Source: Escherichia phage ev099
Length of the DNA stretch: 47,224 bases
Sequence record: NC_049953.1
Direction: 5' to 3' (one strand)
The notes below the pieces were generated by a model, which made no database searches, was not told the DNA's origin, and was given only the letters and a program-made list of their open reading frames with translations. The position numbers and the translations under genes were made by a program. Each line of letters begins with the position of its first letter. The first letter of the stretch is position 1. Below, piece after piece: positions 21,891-43,510 of this stretch.

Positions 21891-23123
21891 ATGATAGGTG
21901 GGGAGTATGGTGCATTATGGCGTAATGATGGCGCTAAAACTTACCTGCTGCTTACCAATCAAGGTGATGTTTATGGTGGCTGGAATACATTAAGACCGTT
22001 TGCTATTGATAACGCAACCGGCGAACTGATTATTGGAACCAAACTGTCCGCAAGTCTGAACGGTAATGCATTAACAGCAACAAAGCTGCAAACGCCAAGA
22101 CTGGTTTCTGGTGTTGAGTTTGATGGTTCCAAAGATATTACTTTAACCGCCGCGCATGTGGCTGCTTTTGCCAGAAGGGCAACGGATACATATGCCGATG
22201 CGGATGGGGGCGTTCCATGGAATGCCGAATCAGGCGCTTACAATGTCACCCGCTCTGGCGACAGCTATATTCTGGTTAACTTCTATACCGGAGTCGGAAG
22301 TTGCCGGACCCTGCAGATGAAGGCACATTACAGAAATGGAGGTCTGTTCTACCGTTCCTCAAGAGATGGCTATGGTTTTGAGGAAGACTGGGCAGAAGTT
22401 TATACCTCGAAAAATCTTCCACCAGAAAGCTACCCAGTCGGCGCACCAATCCCGTGGCCATCAGATACCGTTCCGCCTGGTTATGCCCTGATGCAGGGGC
22501 AGACTTTTGACAAATCTGCATACCCGAAACTTGCAGCCGCTTATCCGTCAGGCGTGATCCCTGATATGCGTGGCTGGACGATTAAGGGCAAACCTGCCAG
22601 TGGTCGCGCCGTATTGTCTCAGGAACAGGACGGCATTAAATCGCACACCCACAGCGCCAGCGCATCCAGTACGGATTTGGGGACGAAAACCACATCGTCG
22701 TTTGATTACGGAACCAAATCCACGAATAACACCGGGGCGCATACCCATAGTATTAGCGGGACCGCAAATAGTGCCGGTGCGCACCAACACAAGAGTTCCG
22801 GTGCATTTGGTGGCACGAACACGAGCATTTTCCCTAATGGTTATACCGCGATTTCAAATCCAAGCGCGGGGATTATGAGCACAACAAGCGGTAGTGGCCA
22901 GACTCGTAATGCAGGAAAGACATCATCAGATGGTGCTCATACCCACTCGCTGTCCGGCACTGCTGCAAGCGCAGGCGCACATGCACATACTGTCGGTATT
23001 GGTGCTCATACGCACTCCGTTGCGATTGGCTCACATGGACACACCATCACCGTTAACGCTGCGGGTAACGCGGAAAACACCGTCAAAAACATCGCATTTA
23101 ACTATATTGTGAGGCTTGCATAA
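21891..23123 (+). CDS. stf: side tail fiber, distal part: collar and His-box region ending with the conserved ...[11 protein letters not shown] tip
   Basis: 410 aa, same frame as upstream stf ORF; contains GAPIPWPSD collar motif and GAHTHS/GAHAHT His boxes. Confidence 0.8.
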
Positions 23124-23704
23124 TGGCATTCAGAATGAGTGAACAACCACGGACCATAAAAATTTATAATCTGCTGGCCGGAACTAATGAATTTATTGGT
23201 GAAGGTGACGCATATATTCCGCCTCATACAGGTCTGCCAGCAAACAGTACCGATATTGCACCGCCAGATATTCCGGCTGGCTTTGTGGCTGTTTTCAACA
23301 GTGATGAGGCATCGTGGCATCTCGTTGAAGACCATCGGGGTAAAACGGTTTATGACGTAGCGTCAGGGGACGCGTTATTTATTTCTGAACTCGGTCCGTT
23401 ACCGGAAAATGTTACCTGGTTATCGCCGGAAGGGGAGTTTCAGAAGTGGAACGGCACAGCCTGGGTGAAGGATACGGAAGCAGAAAAACTGTTCCGGATC
23501 CGGGAGGCGGAAGAAACAAAAAACAGCCTGATGCAGGTAGCCAGTGAGCATATTGCGCCACTTCAGGATGCTGTAGATCTGGAAATCGCAACGGAGGAAG
23601 AAATCTCGTTGCTGGAAGCATGGAAGAAGTATCGGGTGTTGCTGAACCGTGTTAATACAACAACTGCACCGGATATTGAATGGCCAGTAGCACCTATAGG
23701 GTAA
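23123..23704 (+). CDS. tfa: tail fiber assembly protein
   Basis: 193 aa [24 protein letters not shown]...; TAATG overlap with stf stop as in lambda. Confidence 0.93.
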
Positions 23705-24563
23705 ATTCGTAATGATTACCTAAATACGTTATTCTTTTGCTCAAAAAGTGATTTTGCTATAGGTAGAGAGTATGTTCTTGGATTAAGAATAAAAAATCGC
23801 CATGAAAGAGCTTCATGGCGAGTACATAAACGTACAAAATATGATGAAAGTAGAGTGGCGTAAGCCACTATATTAAGATATGACAATAGCGAAGAAAAGT
23901 AAATAACATTTTATGGGCGTTTAATTGTTAATTATAAAAACTAGAGTGCCCGATATTGTTTATCTTGCTTTAAAATAATGTACTCAAACCAAATTTTTGA
24001 GCTAAAAGCTCAAATAATATAAATGCAATGATAATGTTTAATAAGACAATTAGCTTGCTTTGTATTTTCATTTCGGAATACTGTTAAGTAACTTTGATGA
24101 CCCTAACAATAGATCGGAATTTTCTTAGAGTCAATGGACACTGTTTTTGCTTGCAAAGCAAATGTTTTGGTGGTTATAAGTTGTCTTAATATAGTCACGC
24201 ATGCAACTTGTTCCATGCGGAGATTAAAGATTGGAATATAACGCGAAGATGGAATTAAATTACATTTGCAATAATCAATTTATTATTGCTCAATAATTAC
24301 CGATATTATTATTGTAAATTAATCATTAGAGTGCAAAAAGAAATGTAACGGCAAAATAAGAGGACGATAGCTGAGAAAAAAGCGTGCTTTCCCAATCTGG
24401 GGCAAATCACGTCTGAATGACACCTGAAAACAGGTGGTAGCCTCAAGAAGGCTTGGAATATTCTTCTTTAATGTTATGTAATTCATTGATTTTTCGTGTA
24501 CGATTTTAAGACATTTATTCCAAGAAAAATTTTTAACTCTTTGATTTTTCGACTCTGTATCAT

Positions 24564-24625
24564 CGGTCTCGAAAACCGGAGTAGGGGCAACTCTACCGGG
24601 GGTTCAAATCCCCCTCTCTCCGCCA
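24564..24625 (+). tRNA. partial tRNA-Ser (serU-like, anticodon CGA) 3' portion only, about 62 nt, ending CCA
   Basis: GGTCTCGAAAACCGGAGTAGGGGCAACTCTACCGGGGGTTCAAATCCCCCTCTCTCCGCCA matches the 3' two-thirds of E. coli tRNA-Ser(CGA); no acceptor/D-arm upstream. Confidence 0.8.
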
Positions 24626-25200
24626 CTTTATCAATGACTTATCTCCCGACTTCCCGCCTTGCTTTTCCTAAACAGAACAATCGTAGAATATTCTTGAAGG
24701 GTTAGATCGTCACTGTTTTCTGTTCGATACTGTGACATTCAGCACTTGATTCGCTATGGATCTAACAGGAAGGTTTTGAGCGAAAATTTGCAGTTATTCA
24801 GTCGTTTTCTTATCGGTCACCATTATTCTTTTAGACATTGATCCTACAAAGCTGCCGCAAAGTTGGTGGTGGGAACTGAAGTTGCGTAGAGAAGGGGTCA
24901 ATACCCGGAGGCAAACATGGGCTGGCAAAAGTGTAGCGGTATTAGGCGCAGCTATTTAGCCTAGTTATGTTTTATGAAAACTTAATATCATATAAGTGTC
25001 TTACTTATTGGCTGTAAATAAGTTTTTCCTAAGGAATTGTTTCTTGAGTATCATTTGTAACTGTAACGGAATTTATAATCCTTTGCTTTATTGTTACGGT
25101 ATTTTTTATCACACCCTATTTTTTATATGGTTTTTTATACTGAAGTTTGGCAAAGTGAACTTTATATGCATATACTTCATCCTGGTTTCAGTTAAGTTGG

Positions 25201-25953
25201 GTGGATGATATGGCAACTACATGTTCAGTTATATTGATTTTGGAGTCCTTTGATGTTTATTTCGGAAAAGAGAGTGTGTTTCTGGAGAGAGGTTCATCTG
25301 TACTTGTCGACTCTAGCTCTAGAGATTTTTTCCTGACATATCCTGAAAGAGTGATAGTGGCGGATTTTGGCGCTGAGTTTATTAGTCGCTATTTGAAAGC
25401 TAATAACTTAAGGGATATTTATGATTGTAGGGAATATCCATCTTATTTAAAAATAAACTTTGCTGACTTCAGTTTAATTAAAGGATTAATTAGTTGGGCT
25501 AATCACTGTGCTGAATACATAGAAATTTTTGATGAGTCTATTGCTTTTACATGTCTCTCTGCATTTTCTTCTGAAAAACAATTTGGAGTATTTCTGTTTG
25601 AATGTTTGAAAAGCACAGAGGCTAAAGTTAAAACGATTATTCATACGGATTTATCTGCACCATGGCGTCTTAAGGATATATCATCAAGATTATATCTCAG
25701 CGAAAGTTTACTAAAGAGGAAATTGAAAGACGAGGGGGTATCATTCAGTAAGATCATACTTGATGAGAGGATGCAAATGGCTGAATATTTACTCAGCACT
25801 CGTTGTTATCCTATTAGTAAAGTAGCTAAGGTCTGTGGTTATGCCAGTGTCTCATACTTTACTTATGTATTTAGACGTTATTTTGGTGTTTCTCCAAGTC
25901 AATACTCTCAGAGGAGTTCAGAAAGTAAAATTCTTACTCACCAGGGAATCTGA
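25201..25953 (+). CDS. AraC/XylS-family transcriptional regulator (GadX/AppY/EnvY-like), AT-rich
   Basis: 250 aa; C-terminal dual HTH signature ...LKDISSRLYLSESLLKRKLKDEGVSFSKII...VAKVCGYASVSYFTYVFRRYFGVSPSQY; true start may be ATG at 25210. Confidence 0.85.
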   Translation: MDDMATTCSVILILESFDVYFGKESVFLERGSSVLVDSSSRDFFLTYPERVIVADFGAEFISRYLKANNLRDIYDCREYPSYLKINFADFSLIKGLISWANHCAEYIEIFDESIAFTCLSAFSSEKQFGVFLFECLKSTEAKVKTIIHTDLSAPWRLKDISSRLYLSESLLKRKLKDEGVSFSKIILDERMQMAEYLLSTRCYPISKVAKVCGYASVSYFTYVFRRYFGVSPSQYSQRSSESKILTHQGI

Positions 25954-26425
25954 TCATTGTTCTTGCCCCCTTATTTCCAGACAGGGGGTGTATCTTAAGT
26001 TAACGTTACCCGCTGACGTCGATATTCTCGCGGAGAGCGATAACCCAACGCACTGTGCGGATGGTTTTCATTGTAATGTTCGATCGCCACTGCAAGATTA
26101 TGCAATGCCGTTCTTACATTCGGTTTCGGCATGAACGCGATGTAGTCTTCCTTCATCGTTTTCACGAACCTTTCTGCCATTCCATTACTCTGAGGACTGC
26201 TGATTGCCGTTGTGCAGGGCTCCAGATTCAACTCTCTGGCGAACTGCCATGTTTCATGCGCTCTATACGCTGAACCGTTATCTGTCAGCCACTGGATGGA
26301 CTGTTCCGGTACTTTATCGCCAAAGCGTTTTTCTATCGCTCCTAACATGACATCCTGCACTGTCGCTTTATCGTAACCTCCCGTGCTTGCGGCCCAGTCT
26401 ATGGCTTCACGATCGCAACAGTCCA
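25951..26425 (-). mobile_element. IS2-like insertion sequence remnant (3' part of orfB transposase plus terminal inverted repeat)
   Basis: Minus-strand ORF ...[27 protein letters not shown]...[14 protein letters not shown] matches IS2 InsD C-terminus; end sequence ...tctggaaataagggggcaagaacaatgatca resembles IS2 IRR. Confidence 0.8.
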
Positions 26426-26445
26426 GGGCGAACGTAACACGCAGT

Positions 26446-26665
26446 TTTGAATCGCCACGGGTTTAACAGACACCTCAGAGTCATTTAAGATGGCTTAAAG
26501 AGAGGTGCCCATGAGCGGTAAGCGTTATCCCGAAGAGTTTAAAACTGAAGCAGTCAAACAGGTTGTTGATCGCGGTTATTCTGTTGCCAGCGTTGCAACA
26601 CGTCTCGATATCACCACCCACAGCCTTTATGCCTGGATAAAGAAGTACGGTCCGGATTACTCCAC
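26446..26665 (+). mobile_element. IS3-family insertion sequence remnant (left end plus N-terminal orfA fragment)
   Basis: MSGKRYPEEFKTEAVKQVVDRGYSVASVATRLDITTHSLYAWIKKYGP is a typical IS3-family OrfA HTH N-terminus; reading frame degenerates after about 50 codons. Confidence 0.7.
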
Positions 26666-26819
26666 TTTTTCATCAAGCCAATCCGCCCACCACTGCATCA
26701 TTTCTCTGCGCTTATCGAGATACTGAGCGTGGTTGTAAATTCAGCTAACCCAGTGTGTTGACAAAAAATTAGCGCAAGAAGACAAAAATCACCTTGCGCT
26801 AATGCTCTGTCTCAGGTCA

Positions 26820-27036
26820 CTAATACTATCTAAGTAGTTGATTCATAGTGACTGGATATGTTGTGTTTTGTAGCATCATGTAGTCTATTTTTGAGACTAA
26901 AGATATTGTAACACATTGATATTACTGGTTTTTAATGTTTCACGTTCAGCTTTTTTATACTAAGTTGGCATTATAAAAAAGCATTGCTTATCAATTTGTT
27001 GCAACGAACAGGTCACTATCAGTCAAAATAAAATCA
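26820..27036. other. attP: attP phage attachment site (core GCTTTTTTATACTAA at 26949-26963, with P and P' arms)
   Basis: Exact lambda core and conserved P' arm; P arm partly divergent. Confidence 0.9.
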
Positions 27037-33801: not shown

Positions 33802-34699
<898 letters not shown>

Positions 34700-36888: not shown

Positions 36889-36954
36889 CTATCACCGCAA
36901 GGGATAAATATCTAACACCGTGCGTGTTGACTATTTTACCTCTGGCGGTGATAA
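36889..36954. promoter_or_regulatory. OR3-OR2-OR1 operators with divergent pRM and pR promoters
   Basis: TATCACCGCAAGGGATA, TAACACCGTGCGTGTTG, TACCTCTGGCGGTGATA; pR TTGACT / GATAAT. Confidence 0.92.
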
Positions 36955-36970
36955 TAGTTGCATGTACTAA

Positions 36971-37187: not shown

Positions 37188-37219
37188 CGCTCTTACCCAT
37201 CCCCGCCCTGAAAAAGGGC
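37188..37219 (+). promoter_or_regulatory. nutR (boxA CGCTCTTAC, boxB GCCCTGAAAAAGGGC)
   Basis: Sequence motifs downstream of cro. Confidence 0.88.
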
Positions 37220-37624: not shown

Positions 37625-38524
37625 ATGACAAATACAGCAAAAATACTCAACTTCGGCAGAGGTAACTTTGCCGGACAGGAGCGTAATGTGGCAGATCTCG
37701 ATGATGGTTACGCCAGACTATCAAATATGCTGCTTGAGGCTTATTCGGGCGCAGATCTGACCAAGCGACAGTTTAAAGTGCTGCTTGCCATTCTGCGTAA
37801 AACCTATGGGTGGAATAAACCAATGGACAGAATCACCGATTCTCAACTTAGCGAGATTACAAAGTTACCTGTCAAACGGTGCAATGAAGCCAAGTTAGAA
37901 CTCGTCAGAATGAATATTATCAAGCAGCAAGGCGGCATGTTTGGACCAAATAAAAACATCTCAGAATGGTGTATCCCTCAAAACGAGGGACAATCCCCTA
38001 AAACGAGGGATAAAACATCCCTCAAATTGGGGGATTGCTATCCCTCAAAACAGGGGGACACAAAAGACACTATTACAAAAGAAAAAAGAAAAGATTATTC
38101 GTCAGAGAATTCTGGCGAATCCTCTGACCAGCCAGAAAACGATCTTTCTGTGGTTAAACCGGATGCTGCAATTCAGAGCGGCAGCAAGTGGGGGACAGCA
38201 GAAGACCTGACCGCCGCAGAGTGGATGTTTGACATGGTGAAGACTATCGCACCATCAGCCAGAAAACCGAATTTTGCTGGGTGGGCTAACGATATCCGCC
38301 TGATGCGTGAACGTGACGGACGTAACCACCGCGATATGTGTGTGCTTTTCCGCTGGGCCTGCCAGGACAACTTCTGGTCCGGTAACGTGCTGAGTCCGGC
38401 CAAACTCCGCGACAAGTGGACCCAGCTCGAAATCAACCGTAACAAGCAACAGGCAGGCGTGACAGCCAGCAAACCAAAACTCGACCTGACAAACACTGAC
38501 TGGATTTACGGGGTGGATTTATGA
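37625..38524 (+). CDS. O: replication initiator O
   Basis: 299 aa with embedded ori iterons. Confidence 0.95.
   Translation: MTNTAKILNFGRGNFAGQERNVADLDDGYARLSNMLLEAYSGADLTKRQFKVLLAILRKTYGWNKPMDRITDSQLSEITKLPVKRCNEAKLELVRMNIIKQQGGMFGPNKNISEWCIPQNEGQSPKTRDKTSLKLGDCYPSKQGDTKDTITKEKRKDYSSENSGESSDQPENDLSVVKPDAAIQSGSKWGTAEDLTAAEWMFDMVKTIAPSARKPNFAGWANDIRLMRERDGRNHRDMCVLFRWACQDNFWSGNVLSPAKLRDKWTQLEINRNKQQAGVTASKPKLDLTNTDWIYGVDL
37974..38110 (+). repeat. ori-lambda: four approx 18-bp iterons (ATCCCTCAAAACGAGGGA-like) plus AT-rich region inside O
   Basis: tccctcaaaacgaggga / tcccctaaaacgaggga / tccctcaaattggggga / tccctcaaaacaggggga then A-rich stretch. Confidence 0.88.
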
Positions 38525-39222
38525 AAAACATCGCCGCACAGATGGTTAACTTTGACCGTGAGCAGATGCGTCGGATCGCCAACAACATGCCGGAACAGTA
38601 CGACGAAAAGCCGCAGGTACAACAGGTAGCGCAGATCATCAATGGTGTGTTCAGCCAGTTACTGGCAACTTTCCCGGCGAGCCTGGCTAACCGGGACCAG
38701 AACGAACTGAACGAAATCCGCCGCCAGTGGGTGCTGGCTTTCCGGGAAAACGGGATCACCACAATGGAACAGGTTAACGCAGGAATGCGCGTAGCCCGTC
38801 GGCAGAATCGACCATTTCTGCCATCACCCGGGCAGTTTGTTGCATGGTGCCGGGAAGAAGCATCCGTTATCGCCGGACTGCCAAACGTCAGCGAGCTGGT
38901 TGATATGGTTTACGAGTATTGCCGGAAGCGAGGCCTGTATCCGGATGCGGAGTCTTATCCGTGGAAATCAAACGCGCACTACTGGCTGGTTACCAACCTG
39001 TATCAGAACATGCGGGCCAATGCGCTTACTGATGCGGAATTACGCCGTAAGGCCGCAGATGAGCTTGTCCATATGACTGCGAGAATTAACCGTGGTGAGG
39101 CGATCCCTGAACCAGTAAAACAACTTCCTGTCATGGGCGGTAGACCTCTAAATCGTGCACAGGCTCTGGCGAAGATCGCAGAAATCAAAGCTAAGTTCGG
39201 ACTGAAAGGAGCAAGTGTATGA
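38521..39222 (+). CDS. P: replication protein P (DnaB helicase loader)
   Basis: 233 aa, ATGA overlap with O. Confidence 0.95.
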   Translation: MKNIAAQMVNFDREQMRRIANNMPEQYDEKPQVQQVAQIINGVFSQLLATFPASLANRDQNELNEIRRQWVLAFRENGITTMEQVNAGMRVARRQNRPFLPSPGQFVAWCREEASVIAGLPNVSELVDMVYEYCRKRGLYPDAESYPWKSNAHYWLVTNLYQNMRANALTDAELRRKAADELVHMTARINRGEAIPEPVKQLPVMGGRPLNRAQALAKIAEIKAKFGLKGASV

Positions 39223-39509
39223 CGGGCAAAGAGGCAATTATTCATTACCTGGGGACGCATAATAGCTTCTGTGCGCCGGACGTTGCCGCGCTAACAGGCG
39301 CAACAGTAACCAGCATAAATCAGGCCGCGGCTAAAATGGCACGGGCAGGTCTTCTGGTTATCGAAGGTAAGGTCTGGCGAACGGTGTATTACCGGTTTGC
39401 TACCAAGGAAGAACGGGAAGGAAAGATGAGCACGAACCTGATTTTTAAGGAGTGTCGCCAGAGTGCCGCGATGAAACGGGTATTGGCGGTATATGGAGTT
39501 AAAAGATGA
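39219..39509 (+). CDS. ren: Ren exclusion protein
   Basis: 96 aa, overlaps P stop. Confidence 0.88.
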   Translation: MTGKEAIIHYLGTHNSFCAPDVAALTGATVTSINQAAAKMARAGLLVIEGKVWRTVYYRFATKEEREGKMSTNLIFKECRQSAAMKRVLAVYGVKR

Positions 39510-39533
39510 CCATCTACATCACTGAGCTAATAA

Positions 39534-39566
39534 CAGGCCTGCTGGTAATCGCAGGCCTTTTTATTT
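39534..39566 (+). terminator. tR2-like rho-independent terminator between ren and ninB
   Basis: aggcctgc-tggtaatc-gcaggcct hairpin followed by ttttt. Confidence 0.75.
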
Positions 39567-39582
39567 GGGGGAGAGGGAAGTC

Positions 39583-40023
39583 ATGAAAAAACTAACCTTT
39601 GAAATTCGATCTCCAGCACATCAGCAAAACGCTATTCACGCAGTACAGCAAATCCTTCCAGACCCAACCAAACCAATCGTAGTAACCATTCAGGAACGCA
39701 ACCGCAGCTTAGACCAAAACAGGAAGCTATGGGCCTGCTTAGGTGACGTCTCTCGTCAGGTTGAATGGCATGGTCGCTGGCTGGATGCAGAAAGCTGGAA
39801 GTGTGTGTTTACCGCAGCATTAAAGCAGCAGGATGTTGTTCCTAACCTTGCCGGGAATGGCTTTGTGGTAATAGGCCAGTCAACCAGCAGGATGCGTGTA
39901 GGCGAATTTGCGGAGCTATTAGAGCTTATACAGGCATTCGGTACAGAGCGTGGCGTTAAGTGGTCAGACGAAGCGAGACTGGCTCTGGAGTGGAAAGCGA
40001 GATGGGGAGATCGGGCTGCATGA
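39583..40023 (+). CDS. ninB: NinB (Orf recombination mediator)
   Basis: 146 aa MKKLTFEIRSPAHQQNAIHAVQQILPDPTKPIVVTIQERNRSLDQNRKLWA... Confidence 0.93.
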   Translation: MKKLTFEIRSPAHQQNAIHAVQQILPDPTKPIVVTIQERNRSLDQNRKLWACLGDVSRQVEWHGRWLDAESWKCVFTAALKQQDVVPNLAGNGFVVIGQSTSRMRVGEFAELLELIQAFGTERGVKWSDEARLALEWKARWGDRAA

Positions 40024-40547
40024 CTATCAAATCAAATACGCCAGCACACGACAAGGACTGCTGGCAAACGCCGCTTTGGCTTTTTGATGCACTGGATATT
40101 GAGTTTGGATTCTGGCTGGATTCTGCAGCGAGCGACAAAAATGCTCTGTGTGCTCACTGGCTAACTGAGGCCGACGACGCGCTCAATTCTGAGTGGGTAA
40201 GCCACGGTGCAATCTGGAATAACCCACCGTACAGCAATATCAGGCCGTGGGTGGAAAAAGCCGCTGAGCAGTGCATACAACAGCGACAGACGGTAGTTAT
40301 GCTTGTGCCAGAGGATATGTCAGTCGGATGGTTCAGCAAGGCTCTGGAGAGTGTCGACGAAGTTCGCATTATCACTGATGGACGGATTAATTTTATCGAA
40401 CCATCGACAGGGCTGGAGAAGAAGGGAAACAGCAAAGGCTCCATGCTGCTGATTTGGCGACCGTTCATCAGTCCTCGACGGATGTTTACTACCGTATCCA
40501 AAGCGGCATTGATGGCGATCGGGCAGGGCGTCAGGAGGGCGGCATGA
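40020..40547 (+). CDS. phage-type DNA N6-adenine methyltransferase (Dam-like), replacing lambda ninC/ninD
   Basis: 175 aa from ATG 40020 (ATGA overlap with ninB); [11 protein letters not shown] and WNNPPYS (NPPY motif IV). Confidence 0.85.
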
Positions 40548-40720
40548 GGCGACAGCGACGAAGTTTCACCGACATCATCTGCGAAAACTGCAAATACCTT
40601 CCAACGAAACGCTCCAGAAATAAACGCAAGCCAATCCCAAAAGAATCTGACGTAAAAACCTTCAATTACACAGCTCACCTGTGGGATATCCGGTGGCTAA
40701 GATATCGTGCGAGGAAATGA
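40544..40720 (+). CDS. ninE: NinE
   Basis: [52 protein letters not shown]... Confidence 0.8.
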
Positions 40721-41064
40721 CAATGGATTATTCACAGTTAAGTGATTTTGAAATTAACAGAATGGTAGGAGACATAATTTTTAAAGGCCTTTGGGCAAGT
40801 AAACCGGAAACATCAGGGAATAACACCAACAAATGGTATTACGGAAATGCTGATACAACTTTTGAGCCATTAAATCATTTGCCTGACTACTGCAATGATC
40901 CGAGCGCTTCATGGCCGATTATTGAGAAATACAGGATTTCTATCTTAGACCAGTTAACTGAATGGTGTGTGGATGCAAAAGGCGTAAGCCCAATATTTGA
41001 TGCCAGACCTCTCCGCGCCGCCATGATTGTCTTTCTCCTGATGCAGGAGGCCAATAATGCTTAG
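40717..41064 (+). CDS. hypothetical nin-region protein (DLP12/phage 82-like)
   Basis: 115-aa ORF, ATGA overlap with ninE; no lambda counterpart recognised. Confidence 0.55.
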
Positions 41065-41251
41065 CCCATCTCAATCCCTTCAATACCTGAAAGGAAGCAT
41101 AGAGCGGGCTTCAATGTGCACAGAGTGGATTCTATCTAGGTTTAGCGCATACAGAAGATTGCCGGTAAAGGGCATGCCAAGCAAGTCGATGCTGCATATG
41201 CAAAAGAATGCGCGCTGGAAGGTATGGCGAGAACACAGGTTATCTGGCTGA
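41057..41251 (+). CDS. small basic protein whose first 10 codons match lambda NinF ([10 protein letters not shown]) before diverging
   Basis: 64-aa ORF; probable mosaic junction inside ninF. Confidence 0.4.
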
Positions 41252-41270: not shown

Positions 41271-41633
41271 GTGAATACCTACAGCATTACATTACCCTGG
41301 CCTCCGAGCAATAATCGCTATTACCGCCATAATCGCGGGCGCACGCACGTTAGCGCAGAGGGGCAGGCATACTGCGATAACGTCGCCCGAATCATTAAAA
41401 ACGCAATGCTGGATATCGGCCTGGCTATGCCTGTGAAAATCCGCATTGAGTGCCACATGCCGGATCGCCGTCGCCGTGACCTGGATAATCTGCAAAAAGC
41501 CTCTTTTGACGCACTCACCAAAGCAGGTTTCTGGCTGGATGATGCTCAGGTCGTTGATTACCGCGTTGTGAAGATGCCTGTTACCAAAGGTGGGAGGCTG
41601 GAACTGACCATCACCGAAATGGGGAATGAATGA
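41271..41633 (+). CDS. rusA: RusA Holliday junction resolvase
   Basis: 120 aa [34 protein letters not shown]...RRRDLDNL... matches DLP12/phage 82 RusA. Confidence 0.93.
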
Positions 41634-41770
41634 TGTTTGAGTTTAATATGGCAGAACTTCTTCGCCACCGCTGGGGGCGTCTGCGCTTATATCGTTTCCC
41701 CGGTTCTGTTTTGACCGATTACCGAATACTGAAGAATTACGCCAAAACCCTGACAGGAGCAGGAGTATGA
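41630..41770 (+). CDS. ylcG: small protein YlcG-like
   Basis: 46-aa [53 protein letters not shown] overlap with rusA. Confidence 0.5.
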
Positions 41771-41855
41771 AGTCAGAGATAACAATCAACTAATACTGTT
41801 TTGTTGATTTTTGCTTGTAATTGGCGTTCTGGTCTGATTTTTGTGGAGTAAGTTG

Positions 41856-42239
41856 ATGCGTGATATTCAGATGGTTCTTGAGCGTTGGGGAGCGTGGGCG
41901 GCTAATAATCATGAAGATGTGACCTGGTCGTCCATTGCCGCCGGTTTTAAGGGATTAATTACTTCAAAAGTAAAATCTCGCCCGCAATGTTGTGACGATG
42001 ACGCGATGATCATTTGCGGGTGCATGGCCCGTCTGAAAAAGAACAACAGCGATTTGCACGATTTATTAGTAGATTATTATGTAGTCGGTATGACATTCAT
42101 GTCACTGGCAGGTAAGCATTGCTGCTCTGATGGTTATATCGGGAAAAGGTTACAGAAGGCTGAGGGTATAATTGAAGGGATGTTAATGGCATTAGATATC
42201 CGGTTAGAGATGGATATCGTTGTTAATAACTCTAATTAA
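41856..42239 (+). CDS. Q: late gene antiterminator Q, phage 82 / DLP12 QuuD type
   Basis: [33 protein letters not shown]... with Cys-rich zinc-binding region; not lambda-type Q. Confidence 0.88.
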
Positions 42240-42272
42240 TATGCCAATTGTTTACTAAAAATTATTAAAAAT

Positions 42273-42427: not shown

Positions 42428-43510
42428 TTAGAACTGGTAAACCATACCTACAGCAACGATATCATCGGTAGCAACGCCAGATGCTTTCGTGAAATCGCTC
42501 TTATCAATCAGGTTGATTTTGTAGTCAACAAAAGTGGACATATTTTTGTTGAAGTAATAGGTTGCACCTACATCAACATATTCAACCAGGTCCTGATCAC
42601 CCCAAACACCCAAGTCTTTTCCTTTAGAATGCAGGTAAGCAACGGATGGACGCAGGCCGAAGTCGAACTGATATTGTGCAACAGCTTCGAAGTTTTGTGC
42701 TTTGTTGGCAATATGGTTATTACCAAAAACAGTCATGTTCTGGGTTTCAGAATAGGTGGTGGCCAGATAGATGTTGTTCGCATCATATTTCAGACCAGCT
42801 GCCCATACTTCAGCATTTTGACCAGAAGCATTCAGACCGTTGTTACCGTAGATAACCTGATTATTAGTGCGATCAGATTTAGCATAGGTTGCACCCACGC
42901 CGAATCCTTCATACTCATAAGTAGTTGAGAAACCGAAACCATCGCCATTAGCTTCAGTTACTTCATTTCGGTCATTTTTGCCCTGATACTGAGCTGCAAA
43001 GTTCAGGCCATCAACCAGACCAAAGAAGTCGTTGTTACGATAAGTTGCAACACCTGTGGTGCGACCAGTCATGAATACATCTGTTTGGGTCCAGGTATCG
43101 CCACCGAATTCTGGCAGAACGTCAGTCCACGCACCGATGTCGTATGCTACACCGTAGTTACGGCCGTAATCGATTGAGCCGTAGTCACCGAATTTCAGGC
43201 CTGCAAATGCAAGACGGGTTTTGTCTTTGGAGGAACCTTGAGATTCAGCGCGGTTGCCTTTGAATTCATATTCCCACTGACCGAAACCAGTCAGTTGATC
43301 GTTGATTTGGGTTTCACCTTTGAAGCCAAGACGGGCATAAGTAGTATCACCATCATCTGCATCATTAGAGGAGAAGTAGTGCTTAGCATTAACTTTCCCG
43401 TACAGATCCAGCTTGTTACTGTCTTTATTATAAATTTCAGCTGCCTGAGCAGACATCGCCATCAGTACTGATGCAGCTACAGCAGAAATTGCCACTGTTA
43501 ATTTTTTCAT
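42428..43510 (-). CDS. outer membrane general porin (NmpC/Lc/OmpC family), intact
   Basis: 360 aa; signal peptide [39 protein letters not shown]..., C-terminal ...VAVGMVYQF. Confidence 0.93.

Follow-up and report, generated by a model that had tools for sequence, protein, structure and literature searches.

A predicted N6-adenine methyltransferase of the small phage "Dam" family, most likely directed at GATC, in place of ninC and ninD in the lambda-like Escherichia phage ev099

Background

The closest described counterpart of the gene analysed here comes from the VT2-Sa prophage. Its product has been named M.EcoVT2Dam and "is known to target 5'-GATC-3'" (PMC6602927); PMC7556043 credits the cloning to Radlinska and Bujnicki (2001). 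Two more distant relatives belong to the same Pfam family, PF05869. These are orf13 of phage HP1 (HP1 Dam) and the dam gene of the T1-like phage TLS, whose products are 35% and 34% identical, respectively, to the ev099 protein described below. HP1 Dam is of similar length (~173 aa) whereas the T1-type enzymes have, by comparison with the ev099 protein, a 55-aa N-terminal extension and a 14-aa insertion. The genomic neighbourhoods of the HP1 and T1-type genes also differ from the ninB-dam-ninE arrangement treated here.

The better known Dam enzymes of E. coli and phage T4 (alpha class, PF02086) have the same reported GATC target, the same N6-adenine/AdoMet chemistry and a Rossmann-type core. 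They differ, however, in having DPPY rather than NPPY, an inserted target-recognition domain and about 100 more residues, and there is no sequence-family match between the two groups. A further type of phage enzyme is M.EcoPA8orf6770P of the Stx phage phiPA8, an MT-A70 rRNA methyltransferase with a DPPW motif and an upstream winged-helix partner gene (PMC10810198).

The DNA analysed (the window) is the whole of sequence record NC_049953.1, 47,224 nucleotides, from Escherichia phage ev099. It is a complete lambda-like phage genome, close to those of mEp332 and ev243. Phage lambda itself has the gene order NinB-NinC-NinD-NinE, and its nin-region genes are delayed-early, N-dependent and silent under CI repression, N being needed for readthrough of the terminators tR1 and tR2.

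Results and discussion

Gene boundaries and overlaps

The first-pass annotation of this genome singled out a 175-aa open reading frame with WQTP and WNNPPYS motifs, directly after ninB. Both motifs are indeed in the translation, at residues 15-18 and 66-72, and ninB lies directly upstream. According to the ORF listing of the window the frame is open on the plus strand from 39960 to 40547, and within it we place the phage N6-adenine DNA methyltransferase gene (dam) at 40020..40547, from an ATG at 40020-40022 to a TGA at 40545-40547 (175 aa plus stop). We did not adopt an upstream GTG at 39960, which would give 195 aa, since both family profiles and 41 homologues have their start at the ATG at 40020: the TIGR01712 alignment begins at residue 2 and the Pfam alignment at residue 4, and the N-terminus MT(I/L)KSNT is common to all 41 aligned homologues. 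An antisense 174-aa ORF at 40154-40678 is without a Pfam match, and we regard it as a shadow ORF opposite dam and ninE.

Upstream lies ninB (the orf recombination mediator; 39583..40023, plus strand; PF05772, 2e-54), which is 98.9% identical to lambda through its stop codon. That stop, a TGA at 40021-40023, overlaps the dam ATG by four bases (gcATGAct). Downstream the arrangement is repeated: the dam TGA overlaps by four bases (gcATGAgg) the ATG of ninE (40544..40720, plus strand; PF05322, 3.4e-42). Since ATGA overlaps are a usual sign of translational coupling, dam is predicted to be coupled to both ninB and ninE. A Shine-Dalgarno-like GGGGAG (40004..40009, plus strand) lies 10 nt 5' of the dam ATG, within the 3' end of ninB. 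A GATC at 40009-40012 shares the last base of this element, and a second GATC is at 40517-40520, near the 3' end of dam. The database entries P0002, P0011, P0013 and P0022 join the methylase to NinE, RusA or NinB domains, most likely not through real fusion but through frameshifts or miscalled genes at the ATGA overlaps.

Family membership and conserved motifs

A domain search, which the first-pass annotation had proposed as a check, placed the protein firmly in a methyltransferase family. It matched PF05869 ("Dam") at 218.4 bits against a cut-off of 28.1 (E = 6.4e-65, profile positions 1-167 of 169) and the NCBIfam equivalog TIGR01712 ("phage N-6-adenine-methyltransferase") at 265.9 bits against 97.05 (E = 9.7e-80, positions 1-165 of 165). 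Both matches are far beyond chance. There was also a match to phrog_111 (PHROG 111, "DNA methyltransferase"; 8.6e-88). PF05869 was the sole Pfam match at E <= 0.01, and PF02086, the family of host Dam and T4 Dam, gave none.

Conservation was scored on an alignment of 42 homologues with 59-94% identity, in which 43 columns are invariant: the four of N68-P-P-Y71 and 39 others. The invariant residues include, in the N-terminal part, T17, P18, E28, F29, F31, L33, D34 and A36; in the middle, N68-P69-P70-Y71-S72, D99, S101 and W104; and further on, D113, E114, R116, G121, R122, F125, K139, G140 and I145 to P148. Three blocks stand out. The first, W15-Q16-T17-P18 (40062..40073, plus strand), is part of an N-terminal D-x-W-x-T-P block in which W15 and Q16 are at least 90% conserved among the 42 homologues, and D13, W15, T17 and P18 are common to HP1 Dam and TLS Dam. 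The second, F31-W-L-D34-S-A-A-S38 (40110..40133, plus strand), is a motif-I-like block that includes four of the invariant residues listed above (F31, L33, D34 and A36) and coincides with predicted strand beta-1; L33, D34 and A37 are common to HP1 Dam and TLS Dam, and the block is presumably the AdoMet-binding region. The third, N68-P69-P70-Y71 (40221..40232, plus strand), is the catalytic motif IV of amino-methyltransferases. It is invariant in the 42 homologues and in HP1 Dam and TLS Dam, and in the AlphaFold2 model it comes after a predicted strand at 64-67. The DxWxTP and LDxAA blocks come ahead of motif IV, and no target-recognition domain is inserted between them and it: some 30 residues separate motif I from NPPY. 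HP1 Dam and TLS Dam share DxWxTP, LDxAA, WxNPPYSN and a C-terminal R..FI...TG....N.K block with the ev099 protein.

Every testable feature thus supports membership of PF05869/TIGR01712, from which an enzymatic activity is predicted. The enzyme is an orphan: its neighbours are ninB, ninE, ninX and rusA, and there is no adjoining endonuclease gene. It does not fall into either of two better known groups. From the classical Dam enzymes it is set apart by the lack of PF02086, of DPPY and of an inserted target-recognition domain, and from the MT-A70 type by having NPPY and not DPPW, no MT-A70 Pfam match and NinB as the upstream gene. The description "Dam-like" in the first-pass annotation therefore needs qualifying. 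It holds for the specificity, the VT2-Sa enzyme being reported to act on GATC, but not for the family, given the missing PF02086 match and a weak fold match (TM ~0.35). "Dam-like" is right as a statement of reported target and function, not of ancestry, and the protein is not of the classical Dam family.

Other phage adenine methyltransferases were considered as possible members of the same family and rejected. The Hia5 methylases are relatives of classical Dam (PMC3299994), and the PhiOS31_p25/phiP27 L24 type is represented by L24, a 352-aa protein of PF01555. Nor is the ev099 gene the Stx-phage "16S rRNA methyltransferase" of PMC10810198, which is an MT-A70 (DPPW) protein encoded near int.

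Predicted structure and mechanism

Searching the PDB by sequence gave only matches at E > 0.2 to unrelated proteins and thus no homologue, and no member of PF05869/TIGR01712 has a solved structure there. An AlphaFold2 model built on the homologue alignment has a mean pLDDT of 87.7 and a pTM of 0.85 and forms a single compact domain of 175 aa. Its elements are, in order, helix 19-29, strand 31-34, strand 64-67 with the NPPY loop, helix 75-88, strand 92-97, helix 103-109, strand 114-119, loop 120-140, and strands 141-146 and 155-160; loop 120-140 is conserved and is modelled with less confidence. The predicted fold is that of a cut-down, Rossmann-like class I methyltransferase core without a separate target-recognition domain.

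Foldseek comparison of the model with the PDB gave as best match the methyltransferase domain of PCIF1/CAPAM, a cap-specific adenosine N6-methyltransferase (TMq 0.59, probability 1.0). CamA, TrmM, E. coli Dam (TMq ~0.35, 10-14% identity), M.BseCI and proteins of the KsgA/DIMT1 type followed. The top matches are all AdoMet-dependent methyltransferases, nearly all of them adenine-N6 enzymes, with probabilities of 0.9-1.0. The TMq of 0.59 to PCIF1 indicates a shared core only.

By the standard mechanism of the superfamily, the NPPY loop (motif IV), which follows the central strand, would hold a flipped-out adenine, AdoMet would be bound at the end of strand 1, and the N-terminal DxWxTP and LDxAA blocks would presumably form the cofactor site. 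The conserved loops 38-62 and 120-140 are candidates for reading G-A-T-C. A protein of only 175 residues would thereby recognise a 4-bp site.

A cassette exchange for lambda ninC and ninD

The gene was said at first pass to replace ninC and ninD, and comparison with lambda by blastn makes the replacement exact. Window 36939-40023 matches lambda 38000-41084 at 98.9% without gaps and ends exactly at the ninB stop; homology resumes seven bases into ninE, where window 40551-40717 matches lambda 42097-42263 at 95.2% up to the end of ninE. Between these points there are 527 bp with dam here against 1012 bp with ninC and ninD in lambda. The breaks at the ninB stop and seven bases into ninE therefore mark a clean cassette swap for ninC/ninD. 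The lambda genes occupy the same ninB-ninE slot but are unrelated in sequence to dam; NinC is annotated as a PAPS-reductase-like protein. With its exchange points exactly at gene borders, this is textbook-clean lambdoid mosaicism.

Pfam identifies the neighbours as NinB (PF05772), NinE (PF05322), NinX (PF10765) and RusA (PF05866). Beyond ninE, too, the nin region differs from that of lambda: a NinX/DUF2591 gene (40723-41064) follows ninE, rusA (41271-41633) stands for the NinG/Rap of lambda, a YlcG-like small ORF (41630-41770) lies to the right of rusA, and Q (41841-42239) is of a non-lambda type. Several modules of the operon have thus been exchanged, the dam cassette being just one of them. 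Between Q and the lysis genes there is a complete OmpC/NmpC-type porin gene (42428-43510, minus strand; PF00267, E = 3.5e-152). It is of the lc/nmpC type, a lysogenic-conversion porin that phages 434, ev243 and PhiR11_1 are annotated as carrying too.

Other parts of the genome were inspected as well. The b-region from the tail-fibre genes to int (23700-27000) is a low-GC island (32-41% versus 50% overall) with an ORF for an AraC-family regulator (25201-25953, plus strand; PF12833/PF00165) and two remnants of IS3-family transposases, at 25995-26360 (minus strand; rve_3) and 26505-26726 (plus strand; HTH_Tnp_1). The top phage relatives leave 24001 to ~26650 uncovered, and the island looks like a captured moron with IS debris. 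Within it, 24571-24622 resembles the 3' end of a tRNA or tmRNA, with Rfam matches that do not reach the gathering score, and a small ORF at this place reads ...GGFEPP...; ARAGORN found no complete tRNA anywhere in the window. This fragment may be a leftover attachment-site piece from the element that brought the island. Rfam RF02111 ("IS009" RNA) matches 23500-23664 on the plus strand at 185.9 bits against a gathering score of 117, its 5' end being cut by the searched range, and overlaps the 3' end of a tail-fibre-assembly-like ORF (23123-23704).

Transcription

When would dam be expressed? A promoter scan found pR (TTGACT, 17 nt, GATAAT) at 36927..36955 on the plus strand, the lambda-identical block starting at 36939, and no promoter-like site between pR and dam. 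We presume that pR is the source of the transcript that reaches dam. Two further elements of the lambda control circuit lie on the way. The boxB hairpin of nutR, GCCCTGAAAAAGGGC, at 37205..37219 (plus strand) corresponds by an offset of 1061 to the Nutr feature of lambda at 38265-38281, the loading site for N antitermination. Upstream of ninB, at 39535..39566 (plus strand), there is a strong tR2-type intrinsic terminator with an 8-bp G+C-rich stem, its part at 39535-39558 being followed by TTTTTATTT. It maps to lambda 40596-40627 by the same constant offset, within the 98.9% block, and on that ground is assigned as tR2. The gene for the antiterminator N itself is at 34382..34699 (minus strand), as found by tblastn with the N protein of ev243 (96% identity, 106 aa).

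Because dam sits in the pR delayed-early operon behind tR2, its expression should need N antitermination and should be silent in lysogens. Transcripts would then reach it once N lets polymerase pass tR2, in the lytic cycle but not in the repressed prophage. Prophage methyltransferases are often transcriptionally silent (PMC4659465), which lytic-only expression of dam would fit. The earlier suggestion that the enzyme might change the expression of host genes in lysogens fits this arrangement poorly, as dam lacks a promoter-like site of its own and belongs, downstream of tR2, to the pR operon that CI represses.

Identity with the VT2-Sakai enzyme and target specificity

The ev099 protein is identical over all 175 residues to the product of VT2-Sakai orf32 (NP_050531), which also has the same length, motifs and ninB-ninE position. 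The two genes differ at six nucleotides, every one of them a synonymous change at a third codon position. The carriers are different, ev099 being a lambda-like siphovirus whose immunity and replication genes are those of lambda, and VT2-Sakai an Stx podovirus. As orf32 is the only methyltransferase annotated in the entire VT2-Sakai record, we infer that it encodes M.EcoVT2Dam. VT2-Sakai orf4 was considered as another methyltransferase candidate and rejected: it is a DUF551 gene, in the place near int where the related Stx phage phiPA8 has its MT-A70 enzyme.

GATC in DNA is accordingly the most likely target, since the protein is identical to the VT2-Sakai enzyme with that reported specificity, the specificity being taken from the literature. 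Taking all this together, the ORF very probably encodes an orphan AdoMet-dependent N6-adenine methyltransferase of the small phage "Dam" family that would be expressed in lytic growth and would methylate GATC in progeny DNA.

Distribution

The gene is neither new nor rare. At nucleotide identities of at least 95% the 528-bp gene occurs in 242 phage records, including Stx1 and Stx2 phages, Sf6, Sf101, HK544 and many "Lambda_ev" phages. Among complete E. coli genomes, 1566 of 5426 (~29%) carry it at this identity, with up to five copies per genome. The 933W-type Stx phages, Sf6, Sf101, HK544 and the Lambda_ev phages carry the same gene as VT2-Sakai orf32. Gene order is nearly always ninB-dam-ninE, and in E. 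coli the annotation reads "phage N-6-adenine-methyltransferase" between "recombination protein NinB" and "NinE family protein". Relatives at the protein level are found in 1906 phage records, among them T1-like Drexlerviridae and viruses of Klebsiella, Vibrio, Lactococcus, Staphylococcus, Gordonia and even Haloferax. Full-text searching of the literature for ninB in combination with "Dam methyltransferase" gave no result, and a paper on comparative Stx-phage genomics does not mention the gene. The gene is already known, routinely annotated by the NCBI pipeline and very widespread, so that the observation is correct but ordinary; with a protein identical to an enzyme cloned in 2001, it carries little weight as a discovery.

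Alternative readings

The selective role of the enzyme may be something other than anti-restriction, a possibility that we consider slim. Because dam sits between the recombination genes ninB (orf) and rusA, full methylation might shield replicating or recombining DNA from MutH and mismatch repair. Alternatively there may be a second, non-DNA substrate, which is hinted at because the closest solved fold is that of an RNA cap enzyme and because the phiPA8 rRNA methylase offers a precedent.

Slim too is the chance that the protein is an active adenine methyltransferase of relaxed or non-GATC specificity, serving as a broad anti-restriction device. A one-domain enzyme of 175 aa, modelled without a separate target-recognition domain, would be in keeping with this, and non-specific prophage adenine methyltransferases do exist, for instance the Hia5 family (PMC3299994) and PhiOS31_p25 and phiP27 L24 (PMC7556043). 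Hia5 and phiP27 L24, however, belong to families other than PF05869, and the identical VT2 enzyme is reported to be GATC-specific (PMC6602927). Moreover, in the GATC methylomes of strains carrying the gene no unexplained extra motif has been attributed to the enzyme (PMC6602927).

It is very improbable that the substrate is RNA or that a phage partner is needed for specificity, as with the MT-A70 enzyme of phiPA8. Such a reading would draw on the best structural match of the model, which is to an mRNA cap adenosine methyltransferase and not to a DNA enzyme; on the tight coupling of dam to ninB and ninE; and on the precedent of a prophage enzyme that prefers 16S rRNA and works with a partner, although its annotation was that of a DNA methylase for GATC (PMC10810198). 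Yet the phiPA8 enzyme is from a different family (DPPW MT-A70) and its gene is next to int (PMC10810198), and the resemblance to PCIF1 extends, at TMq 0.59, to the common core alone. The HP1 and T1-type members have unrelated neighbours, and therefore no conserved partner, and GATC activity on DNA is reported for the cloned VT2 gene alone in the accounts given by PMC6602927 and PMC7556043.

That dam is a decaying, non-functional passenger we regard as almost certainly wrong: host Dam makes it apparently redundant and the databases contain copies that are truncated, fused or flagged as pseudogenes (e.g. H71; P0002, P0011, P0041), but the frame is intact, the motif residues are invariant, divergence from VT2-Sakai is synonymous only, and identity of at least 95% has been kept in 29% of complete E. 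coli genomes and 242 phages.

Biological role

The window has 118 GATC sites, which are under-represented (0.55 of Markov expectation). On the best-supported view, the phage enzyme supplements host Dam or takes its place, so that replicating phage DNA would be fully methylated at GATC. The enzyme would methylate the 118 sites of a fast-replicating genome more completely than limiting host Dam, and in a dam-deficient host it would replace the host enzyme altogether. This would leave progeny phage with DNA that resists nucleases acting on unmethylated GATC and that is not hemimethylated.
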